A stretch of DNA of 44,832 bases from a phage. Made by a program: the position numbers and the translations under genes. Below are positions 6,160-39,397 of this stretch, piece by piece; the stretch's first letter is position 1; every line of letters begins with the position of its first letter. The notes below the pieces were generated by a model. That model was not told where the DNA came from. It was given only the letters and a program-made list of their open reading frames with translations, and searched no databases. The stretch lies in the sequence record PX055572.1. One strand, written 5' to 3'.

Positions 6160-6186
6160 GACGGCCTCCTCGTTTCGATGTAATGA

Positions 6187-6215: not shown

Positions 6216-6488
6216 ACTATTTATTTACGTATTCCAGTTATTCCACCGAATTGTAAATGTTGGAATAAACTATTCGAATAGTTGACTTTTCACTGAAAAT
6301 ATGCTAAGCTCCACCTGAGCTTGTGAAGTATGAACAAGCGACCGCGGCGCGGGCAGGTAACGGAGCGGGACGTAAGTCCTGAGTGTAGTTACGCTGACGC
6401 GTTCGGAAGGGCCATACTCTATTGCTTGTGTAAAAAGTAACTGGTTTACTGAGATTACGCCGTTTCTATGTTTAAATGATAAGGACTA

Positions 6489-15188: not shown

Positions 15189-15380
15189 CTACTTCTCTTT
15201 CACGTTCGAGTTGCAAGCCCAGATTAAAATGAATACCCACGGCAACAGAATCCACCCGAGAAATAAGTTAGCCATGAATATCGCCAGCTTTGCTTTATGG
15301 TTACGCATATGTGCCACCAAAAACGGGATAAAATAAACGGCTACAAAAATAATTAAGAAGAACATAGTGATACCGGTCAT
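15189..15380 (-). CDS. Small two-TM membrane protein, superinfection-immunity (Imm)-like
   Basis: MTGITMFFLIIFVAVYFIPFLVAHMRNHKAKLAIFMANLFLGWILLPWVFILIWA; start at internal ATG with SD AGGAG 7 nt upstream; LLGW...WxxxLxWA pattern resembles superinfection-immunity family (from memory). Confidence 0.45.
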   Translation of the reverse strand: MTGITMFFLIIFVAVYFIPFLVAHMRNHKAKLAIFMANLFLGWILLPWVFILIWACNSNVKEK

Positions 15381-15422
15381 AACATAACTCCTGATTTGAG
15401 ATAACATCGTTGGTGTAAGTGA

Positions 15423-15451
15423 ATAGTACGCTATTATATTGGGGAGTGCAA
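15423..15451 (-). promoter_or_regulatory. Promoter H: TTGCAC-N17-TACTAT with AATAG-N4-CTATT palindrome
   Basis: As transcribed: TTGCAC TCCCCAATATAATAGCG TACTAT; ~40 nt upstream of Imm-like gene. Confidence 0.55.
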
Positions 15452-15558
15452 GTAGTGTGCTAGAATAATTTTGCGCCTAGTGTCGCACACGAAAAGCGGG
15501 TGGTTCCCGTCTGGCGCATTTCCTTTAACCAGTAACCTCTTAACCAAAGGATTAAAGA

Positions 15559-15975
15559 ATGAAACTTTCTGATTTTTATTACGAAGCGGAAGCCGAAAAG
15601 GGCGCACGTATGCCGATACCGCTAAAAGACGGTACTGATTCCGGGGAATGGCTTAATGTTGTTTCTCCTGAGGCGGACGTTGCCGTTAAGGCTATGCGCG
15701 CGTTCACCCTTGCATACCGGGCAGTATTAGGGAAATTAAAACCGCTTCGTGATAAGTGCGAAGAGATGAAAGATTTCTCTGAATACAACCTGAAGATGGA
15801 AGACGCGGCGACGGACCTTAACCGTCAGTTAGCGATTGAATTGGTTAACGGGTGGAGCCTTGACGACGAATTCAATAAAGAGAATCTGAACACACTCCTG
15901 ACGCAATATAAACGACTCGCGGAACTTGTTGTTGTGTTTCATAACGAACAACTGCACCAGCTACAGGAAAAGTAG
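15559..15975 (+). CDS. Tail assembly chaperone (G-like)
   Basis: 138-aa acidic ORF immediately upstream of tape measure; a -1 frame ORF opens at 15945 before its stop. Confidence 0.5.
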   Translation: MKLSDFYYEAEAEKGARMPIPLKDGTDSGEWLNVVSPEADVAVKAMRAFTLAYRAVLGKLKPLRDKCEEMKDFSEYNLKMEDAATDLNRQLAIELVNGWSLDDEFNKENLNTLLTQYKRLAELVVVFHNEQLHQLQEK

Positions 15976-35216: not shown

Positions 35217-35245
35217 ACTATAATAGCGAACTATTCACATGTCAA
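35217..35245 (-). promoter_or_regulatory. Promoter C: TTGACA-N17-TATAGT with palindrome in spacer
   Basis: As transcribed: TTGACA TGTGAATAGTTCGCTAT TATAGT; in divergent region facing Cro-like gene. Confidence 0.6.
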
Positions 35246-35289
35246 TGGGCTTTTCTAAAATAATTAATATGGTACTATTCACATATCAA
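35234..35289 (+). promoter_or_regulatory. Candidate rightward promoter and operator-like half-palindrome for Cro-like gene
   Basis: TTCACA (35234-35239)-N16-TAAAAT (35256-35261) overlapping promoter C; downstream element GGTACTATTCACATATCAA (35271-35289) resembles the palindrome. Confidence 0.35.
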
Positions 35290-35309: not shown

Positions 35310-35525
35310 ATGCAACCATCTGAACTAGGCACCCGTGTAGAACAACGCCGTAAAGAACTCGGCATCTCCCAGCGCCGTTTGGCGGTCCTGACCGGCGTTT
35401 CCCAGGGCGCAATTAACCAGCTGGCTCTCGGTGTAACTCAGGACGTCCGCCCGGCAACGTTGTTTAAACTGGCGGAAGTGCTGGAAGTAGACGCTAAGTG
35501 GCTGGCGTTCGGTGAAGGGGCTTGA
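35310..35525 (+). CDS. HTH XRE-family transcriptional regulator (Cro-like)
   Basis: ISQRRLAVLTGVSQGAINQL helix-turn-helix; 71 aa; SD AAGGAG; divergent from replication operon; followed by terminator. Confidence 0.65.
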   Translation: MQPSELGTRVEQRRKELGISQRRLAVLTGVSQGAINQLALGVTQDVRPATLFKLAEVLEVDAKWLAFGEGA

Positions 35526-35542
35526 CGCCCCTTTCTTTTTAT
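35515..35542 (+). terminator. Intrinsic terminator after Cro-like gene
   Basis: GGGGC-ttgac-GCCCC then TTTCTTTTTATT; overlaps the stop codon. Confidence 0.6.
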
Positions 35543-35736
35543 TGCACCTTTATCGGGTATCTTTTGCGAAACTTACCTAACCCGCAGTACACGCTGTAAG
35601 CCTCTGTGTAACTGAACACAACATGATACCCGCGCCCATAAGGAACTACGTTAAGAACTTCTACTACTTCGCCTCTGTGGTTGGTGTATTTATTACCTTT
35701 CAGTTCGTCGCTTACTTCTTTAAATTTACCGCTCAT
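35539..35736 (-). CDS. Hypothetical protein
   Basis: 65 aa, coupled to primase-helicase stop. Confidence 0.35.
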   Translation of the reverse strand: MSGKFKEVSDELKGNKYTNHRGEVVEVLNVVPYGRGYHVVFSYTEAYSVYCGLGKFRKRYPIKVQ

Positions 35737-38018
35737 TCCAAATCCTCCTCTGTCACTGTCAACATTTCATTCGGTTCGTATATTGTCTTTGGAATCTTGT
35801 TATCAGTTATTCTGGTGTTCAGCCTGTAACGACCTGGGATTATCTGATTGTTTTCGTCAGTACCCGGAACAAGATACCCGGCCTCAACCATTTTCTTAAT
35901 CTTCCCGCGTTCTATGGCTTCTTTGGAGTTAAACGCCTTTGCGTTGGGGTCTGACTGTGCGAGCTTATTCGCCGCGGCGACTGTGATGCCTTCGTTGCCG
36001 TTGTAGGTTCCTTCCGCCAGTTCAAACGCCGCGAGTATCGTGGCCTCCGAACTGTTGACGGCGTTCTCTACGGTTTTACGTACATTTTCTTTACCTTCTT
36101 TCGTCAACCCTTCTTCCCGCTCTTTCTCCTCGTCAGTTTTGAACGGCTCGAAACCCCACGGCATCAACACAAGCGCCTTGTGTGGTTCAGGCAGGTCCAG
36201 GTTTACGATTGTGCCGTATTCCTCTGTGCTACCCGGGAACTCAACCGCTCGGTATTCTTTAGGCGGCGGCGCTTCACGGAACTGTACCGACTCCAGCACC
36301 ATGCCAACCGTCTTCTGCTGAGGCCCGTGCTTGAATTTCGAGTGATATACGTTTATCTGACGGTCGGTTGCACGTTCGATTGTCAGTTCCACGTCAACAC
36401 CCGCATACAGCGCCCCACTGCCGCGTGCTTTCTTTCCACCCTTCGGCGTATGGTGGACAACGCCTACTGCGGCTTTAGTTGCATCGCGTACTTCTTTCAG
36501 AATGGCGATAACTTTACCCATGCCGATTGCTGTTGATGAACTGTTCTCGTCGAACTTATCAATCGTCAGGGCCAGCGTCTGGTTAAGGGTGTCGAAGGCA
36601 ACCATGCCAATAGGTTCATCCCCTGCGGTTTCGCGCATCCTGCGGATTAGAGCTGGAATTTTTTTATCACCATGCGTAGCGAGTATTTCGCCCATATCGA
36701 TGACATGTACATAATCTTTACCTTCCTCGCCATATTTAGCCGCGAGTGCATCAATACGTGTTCGTGTAGCTGCACCACCCTCGCCGTCAATATAGAAATG
36801 GTAGCAACGTTGGGTGTCAGCCCCCGCAAACCGGTACCCGGCGGCGCTCAGGTACATCATCCCCAGCGTATAGAATGATTTGTACGTGCCGGATTCCCCG
36901 ACAATATCCCAGATACAATCCGACGGCATGTACCCCTCAACGACGAAATCAGCCTTTACCGGTTCTGGTAACTCGTCCTCCTCTGAGTCCTCGTCGTCTT
37001 CCAGGTCGTCGAGGCTGCATGAGACAGATTCACGCGCCCCCCAACCGATGGCCTCTGCGACTTCACTGAACGGCAGCCCGGTCGCATCGCACGCGTACTT
37101 CCACACCTCTTTCGGTGACAGGCCTTCTGTCGCCGTAATGTCTGTGTCGTGAATCATGGTTACGTTTGGCGCTTCATACCCCTCGCGCGGGAAGCACAGC
37201 AGGAAGTCGTCCGGGCGCGGTGCCGGGGCGCTGTAGTTTTCGGCATGTTCCGGTGTGGCTGGCATCTTAAGGCCGCGCGGCGTCATGACGCCGCCGTACT
37301 CAAACGCCAGTGCTTCAAACGCGTCTGTAAACGCGGTGCGCAGTTCTTCCGGTATCTGGTAATCCGATGCGCTGCTAACGTCAACGGCGGGGATGCCTTC
37401 CAGTAACTCGTTCGGGTCGATCAGGTCGTTGCGGCGCGACCAGATAACGGTAGCGCCGACCGGCGGCAGGTACATCGGCTGCGACAGAGTGAACCCGCTG
37501 CGGTCCGCACCCATGCCTTTGAAGAAGTGCTCCAGCAACCCATGACGAACACGGATGATGTCACCACCCTCCACCGGACGGGCCAGTGGCATTACGACGC
37601 GAAAGCGCGGTGACTCATCAGTATGTGATGCCGTGGTATAGAGGCACATGGCCCAGCGGCTGCGCTTAACCAGGCGCACCGCTTCCTGATACTCTTCCGG
37701 TGTTGTGCTGTCGAAATCCAGATAGGCCAGCGACGATTTGCTTACAGACGCATCGCAGCGGTAGAAAAAACCTTTACGCGCTTGCTTAAAGTCTCCAGTT
37801 TCCGGGTCTTTTACGGTGCTGTGCGTTGAGTCGCACGCGGCGGTGATATAACCGGGCGCGGTCTTAGGGTTAATCCCGTCGCGAACGGCATCGAGCGGCT
37901 GGATTAACTCTTTCAGGTCGTCCAGTGTTGCCGTGTGTGCGGTTCTGACATTTATATCCTTTTTTCCCGCCCGCGCGTTGCGGCGTGACCACGAGTAGGA
38001 TAAAATTACATCGGACAT
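35733..38018 (-). CDS. Bifunctional primase-polymerase (AEP-like) / RecA-fold helicase
   Basis: N-terminal LAYLDFD (DxD) and SH motifs of prim-pol type; central Walker A GESGTYKS and Walker B-like MVAFDTL; C-terminus ends EEDLE; 761 aa. Confidence 0.7.
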   Translation of the reverse strand: MSDVILSYSWSRRNARAGKKDINVRTAHTATLDDLKELIQPLDAVRDGINPKTAPGYITAACDSTHSTVKDPETGDFKQARKGFFYRCDASVSKSSLAYLDFDSTTPEEYQEAVRLVKRSRWAMCLYTTASHTDESPRFRVVMPLARPVEGGDIIRVRHGLLEHFFKGMGADRSGFTLSQPMYLPPVGATVIWSRRNDLIDPNELLEGIPAVDVSSASDYQIPEELRTAFTDAFEALAFEYGGVMTPRGLKMPATPEHAENYSAPAPRPDDFLLCFPREGYEAPNVTMIHDTDITATEGLSPKEVWKYACDATGLPFSEVAEAIGWGARESVSCSLDDLEDDEDSEEDELPEPVKADFVVEGYMPSDCIWDIVGESGTYKSFYTLGMMYLSAAGYRFAGADTQRCYHFYIDGEGGAATRTRIDALAAKYGEEGKDYVHVIDMGEILATHGDKKIPALIRRMRETAGDEPIGMVAFDTLNQTLALTIDKFDENSSSTAIGMGKVIAILKEVRDATKAAVGVVHHTPKGGKKARGSGALYAGVDVELTIERATDRQINVYHSKFKHGPQQKTVGMVLESVQFREAPPPKEYRAVEFPGSTEEYGTIVNLDLPEPHKALVLMPWGFEPFKTDEEKEREEGLTKEGKENVRKTVENAVNSSEATILAAFELAEGTYNGNEGITVAAANKLAQSDPNAKAFNSKEAIERGKIKKMVEAGYLVPGTDENNQIIPGRYRLNTRITDNKIPKTIYEPNEMLTVTEEDLE

Positions 38019-38075: not shown

Positions 38076-38309
38076 TTATTCCAGGTCTTCTACAGTAGCG
38101 GTCATTCCGCGAACTTCAGCAACTGCGCTATATTTCCCACCAACATTTTTCACGACACCATATTTAACCAGTACCTTCAACGACCCTTCAATAATGGCGG
38201 AACTATAGTACTTAAAATAACTACGGCGCAAGTCCATAACGCTGCACGACCCTTTTTTACGTGTTAATGAAACGACTGCCGTAAATACGCGTGACTGGAA
38301 CTCGGTCAT
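38076..38309 (-). CDS. Small protein, ends in EDLE
   Basis: 77 aa; C-terminus TVEDLE matches the EDLE tails of the exonuclease and primase-helicase. Confidence 0.4.
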   Translation of the reverse strand: MTEFQSRVFTAVVSLTRKKGSCSVMDLRRSYFKYYSSAIIEGSLKVLVKYGVVKNVGGKYSAVAEVRGMTATVEDLE

Positions 38310-38476
38310 TTTACATTCTCCTTAATCCACGCTTCCACTTTCTCCCGGTCAAACGTACCTGGCTGACGGCGGCCCATAATGCGGATACAACAATCCGGGA
38401 ACTTCCCACTCTTTAACCAGTTATTCAGCGTGCGACGGGTAACCCCGATACGCTCAGCTACCTCATTCTGTGTCAT
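38306..38476 (-). CDS. AlpA-like HTH DNA-binding regulator
   Basis: MTQNEVAERIGVTRRTLNNWLKSGKFP... resembles AlpA/excisionase-type HTH (from memory); first ATG downstream of - strand promoter TTGATT-N17-TATACT; ORF track starts at TTG 38503. Confidence 0.5.
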   Translation of the reverse strand: MTQNEVAERIGVTRRTLNNWLKSGKFPDCCIRIMGRRQPGTFDREKVEAWIKENVK

Positions 38477-38508
38477 CCTCAAGCCCCCATTATCAGTTAA
38501 CAAAATCG

Positions 38509-38537
38509 AGTATACATTGTGAATAATGGGAAATCAA
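38509..38537 (-). promoter_or_regulatory. Leftward promoter TTGATT-N17-TATACT for AlpA-like gene and replication operon
   Basis: -35 (rev) 38532-38537, -10 (rev) 38509-38514, spacer 17. Confidence 0.5.
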
Positions 38538-38712
38538 ACATAATCGCACCTATTGACATTATGAAAATCTTCGTTTAAGGTGCTTTTATATCTTAGTTAC
38601 TTTGATTCTTGTTCACCTTGTAATACCCGCTTGAAACGCAGCGGCGCACCAGCGCCAGCGAAGTGTTAAGCGGCAGATTACTGAACATATGAATTATCGT
38701 AACTTTCCTTCC

Positions 38713-38775
38713 TAAGTATCTCAGGTTGCCCTGGGCAAGCTCTATTCTCATCGACGGCATATCTCTTAAGTATCT
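38713..38775. repeat. Direct repeats TAAGTATCT (x2) in divergent intergenic region
   Basis: cctAAGTATCTcagg at 38713-38721 and cttAAGTATCTgata at 38767-38775. Confidence 0.3.
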
Positions 38776-38813
38776 GATAATTAAAAGTTTCTATAGTTGC
38801 CGTGAGCAATGTT

Positions 38814-38870
38814 GAGAGTACTTCACTCCGCTGGGGTGGGCTAAAGCCCACCCGCTGCGTTGCGTACTCT
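38814..38870 (+). other. Composite stem-loop in divergent intergenic region
   Basis: Outer stem AGAGTAC/GTACTCT enclosing GGGTGGGC-taaa-GCCCACCC; followed by TTTTAAG; no ORF. Confidence 0.35.
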
Positions 38871-38912
38871 TTTAAGAAACGAAAGAATCACAACGGCAAC
38901 GTAACTATTCTC

Positions 38913-38941
38913 TTGCACACCCCAACATAATAGGTTACTAT
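38913..38941 (+). promoter_or_regulatory. Promoter D: TTGCAC-N17-TACTAT with AATAG-N4-CTATT palindrome
   Basis: TTGCAC ACCCCAACATAATAGGT TACTAT; 35 nt upstream of ATG 38976. Confidence 0.55.
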
Positions 38942-38975
38942 TCACTTATAGAAACGAGACAGAGGAGTGAGGGTT

Positions 38976-39164
38976 ATGTTTAAACGCGGTCAGTTGGTGA
39001 AAACAGCATATGGCTTTGGTGTTGTCGGAAAAGAGTCTGTCGTATACCCAGGGTCTTATATCATCCGTTATATCAGGCGGGACGGATTAACTCCTTCGGT
39101 TTATTACGAAGCTAATGAGTTAAAACTCATCGGCAACAATTTTAAATTCAAAGGGGCGAAGTGA
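38976..39164 (+). CDS. Small hypothetical protein
   Basis: ATG 38976 with SD AGAGGAG 8 nt upstream; first gene downstream of promoter D. Confidence 0.45.
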   Translation: MFKRGQLVKTAYGFGVVGKESVVYPGSYIIRYIRRDGLTPSVYYEANELKLIGNNFKFKGAK

Positions 39165-39397
39165 TGCAAATCATAATTACAGATAACACCGTTATCTACG
39201 AAGAAGATGGTGATACTCTCGAGAAAATAGGCGTAAATGTGGGTGATGTTTTCAATGTACTGGATTCCTGTGAGGATGGCTGGTGGATTAAGACAGGAAG
39301 ATACACAATCCCGGTAACTAAGGCAGAAGCGAAGGTATACACAACGGCATCTAATCATGATGCTCGTGCCGACGACTCTGAGGGAGGTTGCCGTTAA
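39164..39397 (+). CDS. Small hypothetical protein (paralog of 39397..39552)
   Basis: Shares IIITD / GVNVGDVF motifs with next ORF; ATG overlaps upstream stop. Confidence 0.45.
   Translation: MQIIITDNTVIYEEDGDTLEKIGVNVGDVFNVLDSCEDGWWIKTGRYTIPVTKAEAKVYTTASNHDARADDSEGGCR

Follow-up and report, generated by a model that had tools for sequence, protein, structure and literature searches.

A covarying 110-nt hairpin marks a probable non-coding RNA or leader in the divergent control region of a Kagunavirus-like phage

The Guernseyvirinae, which include Kagunavirus and Jerseyvirus, rank among the phages of Escherichia coli and Salmonella that are isolated most often, and they are used in therapy, biocontrol and synthetic-biology chassis work. 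The DNA analysed in this study (the window; 44,832 nt, record PX055572.1) is a Kagunavirus-like genome of this group: a megablast search with positions 38300-39200 returned 336 phage records, every one a siphophage of Escherichia or Salmonella from the Kagunavirus/Jerseyvirus group. The phage is virulent, and neither an integrase nor a lysogeny module was seen in its genome. Here we describe the interval 38477-38975, which is exactly the gap between the ATG of a leftward gene for a helix-turn-helix (HTH) protein (38476, minus strand) and the ATG of the first small rightward gene (38976). Judged from its sequence, the gap carries an element that is most likely a control-region non-coding RNA or leader of these phages, new to Rfam and to the literature searched.

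The flanking genes, and the features of the part of the gap that lies next to the HTH gene, are as follows.

38306-38476, minus strand: HTH_17/excisionase-like DNA-binding protein of 56 amino acids (aa), first gene of the leftward operon (from the translation; Pfam HTH_17, 3.6e-8)
35733-38018, minus strand: replicative helicase-primase, 761 aa (PHROG, 1e-284; AAA_25 helicase domain)
38976-39164, plus strand: first of a series of small rightward genes (from the translation; PHROG families of unknown function)
38537-38509, minus strand: P_L, a sigma-70-type promoter found by consensus scan (-35 TTGATT, 38537-38532; 17-bp spacer; -10 TATACT, 38514-38509)
38553-38581, plus strand: P_R1, a putative promoter (-35 TTGACA, 38553-38558; 17-bp spacer; -10 TAAGGT, 38576-38581; predicted start near A38588)
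38588-38873, plus strand: predicted non-coding transcript, ~286 nt if the cassette hairpin ends it (deduced from P_R1 and the terminator-like hairpin)
38595-38704, plus strand: extended imperfect hairpin of 110 nt (folding free energy, dG, -44.8; z = -6.9)
38595-38600/38699-38704, plus strand: paired stem P1 of this hairpin
38603-38608/38691-38696, plus strand: paired stem P2
38610-38615/38682-38687, plus strand: paired stem P3
38616-38619, plus strand: invariant 4-nt asymmetric loop CCUU, between P3 and P4
38620-38624/38677-38681, plus strand: paired stem P4
38627-38634/38666-38673, plus strand: paired stem P5
38641-38647/38652-38659, plus strand: variable apical stem, whose sequence differs among relatives
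38705-38780, plus strand: tail, conserved in sequence and unstructured (z = +0.46), ending at a mosaic breakpoint
38713-38721, plus strand: first exact copy of TAAGTATCT, in the tail
38726-38738, plus strand: small hairpin TTGCCCTGGGCAA, in the tail
38767-38775, plus strand: second exact copy of TAAGTATCT, in the tail, 54 bp from the first
within 38705-38780, plus strand: CTCTATTCTCATCG block, part of the conserved tail

For comparison we used 44 IMG/VR loci recovered through the HTH protein, together with the annotated Bas73 region (PQ850603.1); HTH matches at 54% identity in two loci (L043, L044) were set aside as unrelated high-GC elements. Across these relatives the gap is a mosaic of four blocks, namely the promoters with the core, a hairpin cassette, a block around a second rightward promoter (P_R2), and a variable first rightward gene. 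The first block extends from the HTH start codon to ~38778 and comprises P_L, P_R1 and a core of ~195 nt. It occurs in at least four sequence types: type A (the window) and type J (Jerseyvirus) are ~76% identical, and types G3 and 4 are unalignable with type A. All the same, the order of promoter, hairpin, tail and terminator is kept by the unalignable types.

The strongest feature of the gap is the 110-nt hairpin, which was absent from the features listed in the initial annotation of this DNA. Compensatory substitutions have kept its helices intact. When folded singly, all Kagunavirus and Jerseyvirus sequences adopt one shared architecture despite 4-5 different apical sequences, and a covariance model built from 14 Kagunavirus sequences recovers all 12 Jerseyvirus copies (E = 3e-6 to 1.5e-4). 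In the alignment of these 26 sequences fitted to the model, 96.2% of the cells are paired and 17 of the 35 pairs have changed on both sides (112 cells), against 25-45% paired cells and 1-5 such pairs when the partners are slid; none of 500 shuffles matched the observed value. Because this alignment had been fitted to the model, the count was repeated on a plain MAFFT alignment of the 14 Kagunavirus sequences. The result was similar: 95.4% of cells paired with 6 compensatory pairs, 29-38% paired in the slid controls, and a covariation score not reached by any of 500 shuffles. The G3 type has a hairpin of its own, of ~65 nt and on the same strand, in which 4 pairs have changed in a compensatory way and four are G-U in 11 of 11 sequences.

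The pattern of change is also asymmetric with respect to the strands. On the plus strand there are 38 G-U cells versus 13 A-C or C-A cells, and the plus strand folds more stably in 13 of the 14 Kagunavirus hairpins and does so in each of the 11 G3 sequences when the whole core is folded. The complete segment 38588-38873, of which 38588-38780 is the conserved core, folds with z = -5.2 on the plus strand. Stems P1-P5 together supply ~31-40 pairs, interrupted by the CCUU loop; an RNase III signal of the T7 R-site or lambda N-leader type calls for a coaxial RNA duplex of 20 bp or more that contains an asymmetric internal loop, and the modelled hairpin resembles such a processing signal in structure only.

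The two promoters next to the HTH gene stand back to back. The leftward one had been placed at 38509-38537 by the initial annotation, and it is present there: the P_L hexamers are kept in all A-type (Kagunavirus) and Jerseyvirus loci, and the scan calls the same site in L003 and L017. For P_R1, the pattern TTGAC[AT]-N17-TAAG[GTC]T is shared by 42 of 44 sequences, which span types A, J and G3, with an N18 spacer in one of these loci, the spacer sequence itself having diverged; the type 4 counterpart is TTGAAA-N18-TATAAT. It is this conservation across types that suggests that P_R1 is a promoter. The same annotation mentioned a rightward "promoter D" without coordinates, a description to which two candidates, P_R1 and P_R2, correspond.

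The tail that follows the hairpin is near-invariant across Kagunavirus and Jerseyvirus, with BLAST identities of 85-87% even where the hairpin is unalignable, and it is the best-conserved part of the element in Jerseyviruses. The two exact copies of TAAGTATCT lie here, at the positions and the distance reported earlier. By arithmetic, ~0.46 repeats of a 9-mer are expected in ~490 bp by chance, so that the copies are of significance only because both are retained in 26 diverged relatives. Genome-wide the motif is not enriched (14 occurrences with at most one mismatch vs 7.5 +/- 2.8), and the idea of a TAAGTATCT regulon was dropped. Two further resemblances were abandoned on account of variation among relatives: GCUCUAUU, after the small hairpin, recalls the boxA site of NusB/E, and relatives have GCUAUAUU or AGUCUAUU; GGCGGCAU recalls the ops site of RfaH, and relatives have GACGGC or GGCAGC. 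To look for a target in trans, duplex energies were computed between the tail and every transcribed 40-nt window of the phage genome (n = 8,881); the best value was -38.5 against a mean of -19.5 (standard deviation 4.6), none of the candidates lay at a start codon, and they were rejected.

Downstream of the tail the window carries one of several exchangeable modules.

38781-38876, plus strand: cassette a, a variable module comprising AAGTTTCT, the hairpin TTGCCGTGAGCAA and a nested stem-loop
38785-38809, plus strand: hairpin TTGCCGTGAGCAA, a degenerate 25-nt copy of 38714-38738
38814-38871, plus strand: nested stem-loop with an inner GC hairpin (38834-38853) and a T-run, TTTT, at 38870-38873

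The nested stem-loop followed by TTTT, already recognized in the initial annotation, has a dG of -31.6 kcal/mol (z = -4.4), and none of 200 shuffles folds as well. At this one site three non-homologous, interchangeable cassettes (a, b and c) are found, and relatives carry unrelated hairpins. Cassette b reads GGGCAGGC-TTAA-GGCCTGCCC and then TTTAGTT (it can also be written GGGCAGGC..GCCTGCCC-TTTAGTT), while cassette c consists of (CTCA)n, the hairpin GGTGCCTTCGGCACC-ACGTTCGTTTC (GGTGCC-TTCG-GGCACC, with a cUUCGg tetraloop) and a T-rich run. Each of the three is a GC-rich hairpin with T-rich 3' sequence in the rightward sense only, and in the scan cassettes b and c score as terminator-like, again in the rightward sense only; cassette a, whose nested stem is followed by only UUUU, is not listed by the terminator scan. 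The copy number of (CTCA)n differs between near-identical phages (L018 vs L021, L022 and others) in the manner of a microsatellite, and CUCACUC within cassette c is complementary to the ribosome-binding site of the first rightward gene. In cassette a, positions 38822-38833 are complementary at 10 of 11 positions to the ribosome-binding site of the first gene; an anti-Shine-Dalgarno role was rejected, as the complementarity is not universal and the cassette also occurs with a different first gene.

The last part of the gap, and the gene that may regulate it, comprise the following features.

38877-38975, plus strand: P_R2 block, near-invariant
38901-38914 and 38934-38947, plus strand: direct repeats GTAACTATTCTCTT and GTTACTATTCACTT, in the P_R2 block
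38913-38941, plus strand: P_R2 (-35 TTGCAC, 38913-38918; 17 bp; -10 TACTAT, 38936-38941)
38929-38942, either strand: operator-like palindrome AATAG-GTTA-CTATT, which overlaps the -10 of P_R2 and is conserved in Kagunavirus and Jerseyvirus alignments
38962-38967, plus strand: Shine-Dalgarno sequence GAGGAG, in the P_R2 block
35310-35525, plus strand: XRE/Cro-type HTH_3 gene, 71 aa (Pfam HTH_3, 2.3e-12)

The P_R2 block is 92-98% identical even where the HTH genes are ~80% identical and the upstream core is unalignable. Its palindrome belongs to a larger set. AATAG-N4-CTATT, with at most one mismatch, has 10 sites in the window, whereas 1.05 are expected and none of 100 shuffles gave as many. They are those at 6186, 15422, 28805, 32493, 35222, 35266, 38929 and 40056 and, in weaker form, at 6277 and 42672; from a comparison with the map of open reading frames (ORFs), the eight stronger sites appear to lie between long ORFs. 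An oriented 18-mer that extends the palindrome, TAATAGGNTACTATTCAC, is present at 7 sites (0.33 expected), 5 of which point to an adjacent gene on the same strand. P_L and P_R1 do not have the palindrome. Two copies, 35222-35235 and 35266-35279, lie 44 bp apart within a 25-nt direct repeat upstream of the XRE gene, which stands alone on the plus strand amid the leftward replication block, with a terminator of its own (35514-35534). A strong leftward promoter, TTGACA-17-TATAGT (35245-35217, 11 of 12 matches), flanks this gene.

The palindrome is found over a promoter, at sister promoters and at the gene of a candidate regulator, as in Cro/CI-type systems. The set looks like the operators and promoters of a Cro-like regulator in a virulent phage, and we infer that the XRE-type protein is a candidate regulator of P_R2 and its sister promoters. 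Like Cro/CI-type operators, the site at P_R2 is a 14-bp palindrome over the -10, repeated at several promoters and present twice before an XRE-family HTH gene; those systems differ in that the phage studied here is virulent, and the XRE protein is only presumed to bind the palindrome. Close to another member of the set (35 nt from the palindrome at 15422-15435), a match to the int-alpA RNA (RF02996) was detected at 15470-15534 of the plus strand, with 36.6 bits against a gathering threshold of 35.8. It lies in a divergent gap, between the end of a leftward block at 15255 and a rightward gene at 15559, and is a candidate for a second structured RNA in a control region of this phage.

Taken together, these observations lead us to regard the gap as a divergent early control region with a non-coding RNA gene or leader, a reading to which we give a probability of about 0.68. 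They bear out the earlier proposal of a noncoding control element or control hub: three conserved promoters, a shared operator-like palindrome, and a covarying element between a promoter and terminator-like hairpins are present. A rightward transcript is favoured over protein sites in duplex DNA because a conserved promoter lies 7-13 nt upstream, the terminator-like hairpins are restricted to the rightward sense, and one of them has a cUUCGg tetraloop. In the mechanism that we propose, P_L would drive the operon of the HTH and helicase-primase genes leftward, and host RNA polymerase would start back to back with it at P_R1 (~38588) and transcribe the hairpin and the tail. Transcription would halt, at least in part, at the cassette hairpin (~38873), giving an RNA of ~200-290 nt. 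The hairpin might act as a stability or RNase III-type processing element, and the conserved single-stranded tail might contact a partner, either a protein or another RNA. P_R2 would give separately regulated access to the small early genes, with the XRE-type protein (35310-35525) repressing or tuning it. As to the function of the RNA, we tentatively consider a cis-acting leader that gates or processes unregulated transcription from P_R1 before the long rightward block, which consists of small early genes and, in the relative Bas73, lysis genes; a trans-acting regulatory or decoy RNA is only slightly less probable.

Known phage RNAs offer partial parallels. The lambda PR'-6S RNA-tR' late leader and the T7 early leader with its RNase III site R0.3 share with the transcript proposed here a host-polymerase promoter, a length of ~200-300 nt, a place before a long gene block of the same direction, a 3' end no farther than a terminator, a long imperfect hairpin of RNase III type and tandem promoters thereafter. 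They differ in that their hairpin and tail are far less conserved, and a separate operator-controlled promoter before the genes is found only here; none of the neighbours tested was recognizable as an antiterminator of the Q or N kind. The put RNAs of HK022 are likewise promoter-proximal structured RNAs that precede the first terminator of a long operon and act without a protein factor. However, put consists of two stem-loops of ~35 nt, whereas here there is one 110-nt hairpin with an unstructured tail, and the sequences do not match. Lambda OOP, P22 Sar, P4 CI RNA and DicF resemble the element as discrete non-coding units with their own promoter, a hairpin and a conserved single-stranded stretch. 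The element described here is larger, has no Rfam relationship and no target that was found, and is not antisense to a neighbouring gene, since the predicted transcripts of P_L and P_R1 do not overlap.

Several observations weigh against a non-coding RNA or leader. In the sole RNA-seq paper on a Kagunavirus (PMC12645636) counts are given at gene level, and no transcript of the gap is on record. The -10 hexamer of P_R1 matches 3 of 6 consensus bases, which is below the threshold of the scan, so that the scan did not list it. U-tracts are short or interrupted in all three cassettes, and cassette c is no more stable than its shuffles (z = -1.05). Jerseyvirus hairpins show no thermodynamic preference for a strand, and G-T wobble is tolerated in single-stranded DNA too. 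The duplex-energy scan brought to light no convincing base-pairing target in the phage genome. The region coincides with the GC-skew minimum and adjoins replication genes. Moreover, a stretch of 250 bp contains 4 copies of AAGT[AT][AT]CT, a density reached in none of 200 shuffles, and this motif behaves like a protein site at the DNA level. Finally, an 18-mer, CAAAGTWACTAAGATAYA or CAAAGT(A/T)ACTAAGATA(T/C)A, located at 38589-38606 on the minus strand of the window, shares 16 of 18 positions with G3-type loci; it forms the 5' arm of the hairpin here and lies inverted, upstream of P_R1, in those loci. Its inversion across otherwise unalignable regions suggests a protein-binding site in the DNA.

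Two alternatives dispense with a functional RNA altogether. According to the first, the gap contains a minus-strand gene for a small protein, the reading adopted in the annotation of Bas73 (107 aa) and of a few further records; in PQ850603.1 a coding sequence for a "hypothetical protein" covers the equivalent of ~38630-38940. The statement in the initial annotation that the region has no ORF was too strict in this respect, as ORFs of 34-57 aa exist in the gap, including minus-strand ones of 55 and 57 aa. It holds for conserved ORFs, of which there is none on either strand: presence, length (0-116 aa), starts, stops and frame all vary among relatives. The minus-strand ORF is missing in several Jerseyvirus and G3-type loci and is interrupted by indels of 1, 2, 8 and 11 nt, those in the stems breaking the frame, and variation tracks base-pairing and not codon periodicity. 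Besides, the A/J core is present in at least 376 phage records, and most of 40 sampled records have no annotation over it. We consider such a gene extremely improbable. The other alternative confines function to the promoters and explains conservation by recombination, with "linker" sequences conserved where modules meet and the hairpin maintained as a selfish DNA palindrome. The mosaicism is indeed clear, with breakpoints at the HTH start codon, ~38778 and ~38877, and the most conserved blocks lie exactly at these boundaries. Yet the imperfection of the hairpin is itself conserved, in its bulges, its invariant CCUU loop and its fixed G-U pairs; the helices change by compensation instead of staying palindromic; and the layout common to unalignable types is retained. 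This explanation is accordingly very improbable in our estimation.

More attention must be given to replication, since the initial annotation had proposed an origin with iteron-like repeats next to the helicase-primase gene. The proposal found no specific support: only two 9-bp copies are present, no DnaA box is conserved, and the stem-loop is swappable. The adjacency is real, as is the low local GC content (0.44 vs ~0.50 for the genome) with a cumulative GC-skew minimum at 38-39 kb, but all three are explained equally well by a divergent promoter region at which the coding strand switches. An origin of iteron type, or a hairpin origin acting as single-stranded DNA, would have TAAGTATCT and AAGTWWCT bound by the HTH protein or the helicase-primase and the hairpins serving as loading or priming signals, for which RSF1010 ssiA/ssiB provide a model. 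In favour of it one may cite the clustered AAGTWWCT motifs mentioned above, the retention of both TAAGTATCT copies, the 18-mer that was moved and inverted between sequence types, and the AAA_25 domain of the helicase, which is of the RepA/DnaB-like family. Lambda ori, plasmid oriV and RSF1010 oriV (ssiA/ssiB) also have short repeats and hairpins, as here beside a gene for a RepA/DnaB-like AAA_25 helicase. In contrast to iteron origins, however, the gap lacks a phased array of 17-22-bp repeats, and neither a DnaA box nor an AT-rich element is conserved in it; TAAGTATCT shows no enrichment across the genome, and the P4-type octamer is at the level of chance. Protein sites in a duplex would not be expected to show compensation across 110 nt or G-U pairs biased to one strand, nor to be flanked by a promoter and terminator-like hairpins, and we judge this kind of origin very unlikely. 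A different proposal is an origin activated by RNA or transcription, in which transcription from P_R1 opens the DNA or leaves an R-loop or primer for the helicase-primase, with bidirectional replication. This is compatible with the RNA being real. The site adjoins the replication operon at the divergence of two gene blocks and at the skew minimum, the structured segment, itself conserved, is fed by a conserved promoter, the rest of the window shows no iteron origin of the classical kind, and G-rich runs (GGGGTGGGC and GGGCAGGC) occur on the RNA-like strand of cassettes a and b. ColE1 RNA II, T4 oriF/oriG and the T7 primary origin similarly combine a promoter that leads into a structured transcript beside replication genes with a divergence of polarity and a skew minimum. 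The coding-strand switch, though, accounts equally well for skew and gene polarity, and nothing links the helicase-primase to the gap DNA; no relative of the enzyme with a solved structure or a known origin was found. The segment downstream of the core, where the 3' end of a primer or an unwinding element would be expected, is freely swapped among unrelated cassettes, unlike in the ColE1, T4 and T7 systems, and an AT-rich unwinding element is not conserved. An RNA-activated origin is therefore unlikely. We regard as quite unlikely, too, the more specific idea that the P_R1 transcript itself is the origin element of Guernseyvirinae, an RNA II-like or R-loop-forming RNA that licenses loading of the helicase-primase, in which case the fold types (A/J, G3 and type 4) might be alternative "specificity types"; if true, this would amount to an RNA-defined origin in a virulent enterobacterial siphophage.

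The searches for origin signals were as follows. No phased array of 17-22-bp iterons was present in the region or elsewhere in the window, and Tandem Repeats Finder reported nothing in the region and only weak two-copy arrays elsewhere in the window. The repeats of the gap are the two exact 9-mers 54 bp apart and one degenerate 25-nt pair; the window contains no other cluster of direct repeats except the operator pair 35221/35265. The DnaA box TTATCCACA gave 0 matches, and the sole relaxed match, TTATTCACA (38518-38526, minus strand), was discarded, as relatives have lost it and carry TTATTCGCA. An AT-rich stretch at 38776-38796 belongs to cassette a only. The P4-type iteron TGTTCACC, which has one copy in the region (38610) and 3 in the window against 1.36 expected, was likewise rejected, 19 of 100 shuffles reaching 3; a P4-type origin was dismissed because the helicase domain is AAA_25 and not D5/SF3.

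Should the gap encode a control-region RNA or leader, as we consider probable, the annotation of Guernseyvirinae genomes is to be corrected, the element being unannotated in most sampled records and represented by a spurious protein in some. Genome engineers would be advised not to treat the "empty" DNA of the gap as a place for deletions or insertions; no natural deletion of the element was seen among the Guernseyvirinae loci, and the P_R2 palindrome lies 412-805 bp from the HTH start in 34 of the 42 loci, those in which it was located. The element would also be a regulatory RNA well suited to experiment: several sequence types occur naturally, and isolates (BASEL Bas70-76) as well as RNA-seq data are already available, the public data for Kagunavirus vB_Eco_K1B4 (PRJNA939978 / PRJCA028359) being published at gene level only. 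If it is true that the RNA gates the long rightward operon or acts on the host, it would open a new approach to timing in a virulent phage whose transcription depends on host RNA polymerase alone.

Some further details concern the surroundings of the element. The leftward operon comprises, in this order, the HTH_17 gene, a 77-aa ORF, the 761-aa helicase-primase gene and an exonuclease gene, and its HTH gene has been classed as early in the RNA-seq study of Kagunavirus (PMC12645636). Within the 5' half of the helicase-primase gene (37001-38000) the GC content is 0.593. A link between the HTH allele and the RNA type was considered and rejected; the correlation is only what physical linkage predicts, and types G3 and 4 share one allele. 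Two loci (L001 and L010) have ~140 bp of extra DNA directly upstream of the HTH gene, with a start codon in the same orientation at its end; this insert resembles an additional small leftward gene, and P_L is displaced outward. In another locus (L024, IMG/VR 3300045988_013548), the Nextera adapter CTGTCTCTTATACACATCT just after P_R1 marks an untrimmed contig end and is not phage DNA.

With respect to distribution and novelty, a search of Rfam 15 gave no match to the region at the gathering threshold, and at E<=10 three chance-level matches of 15-18 bits (gathering threshold 50); seven relatives gave nothing at E<=0.1. In the literature searched, neither an origin nor a non-coding RNA was described for these phages. 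Outside the Guernseyvirinae, a pattern scan of IMG/VR returned only chance matches, in an unrelated family of AT-rich phages, and no chromosomal homologue was present in 5,426 complete E. coli genomes. The sole match among plasmid records was CP088689.1 in PLSDB (44,086 bp, from an E. coli blood isolate), listed as a non-mobilizable plasmid, in which the cassette/P_R2 block is 93% identical and whose length matches that of a Kagunavirus genome; this record is probably a phage genome that was assembled with its host and filed as a plasmid. Six matches were obtained among GTDB species representatives, five of them chance and one a Jerseyvirus contaminant contig. The latter, scaffold22 of Taishania pollutisoli CZZ-1 (NZ_JACVEL010000022.1; 18,987 bp), is 90-95% identical to Jerseyvirus loci over more than 3 kb, and its presence in a Bacteroidota assembly, hairpin region included, is almost certainly due to phage contamination.

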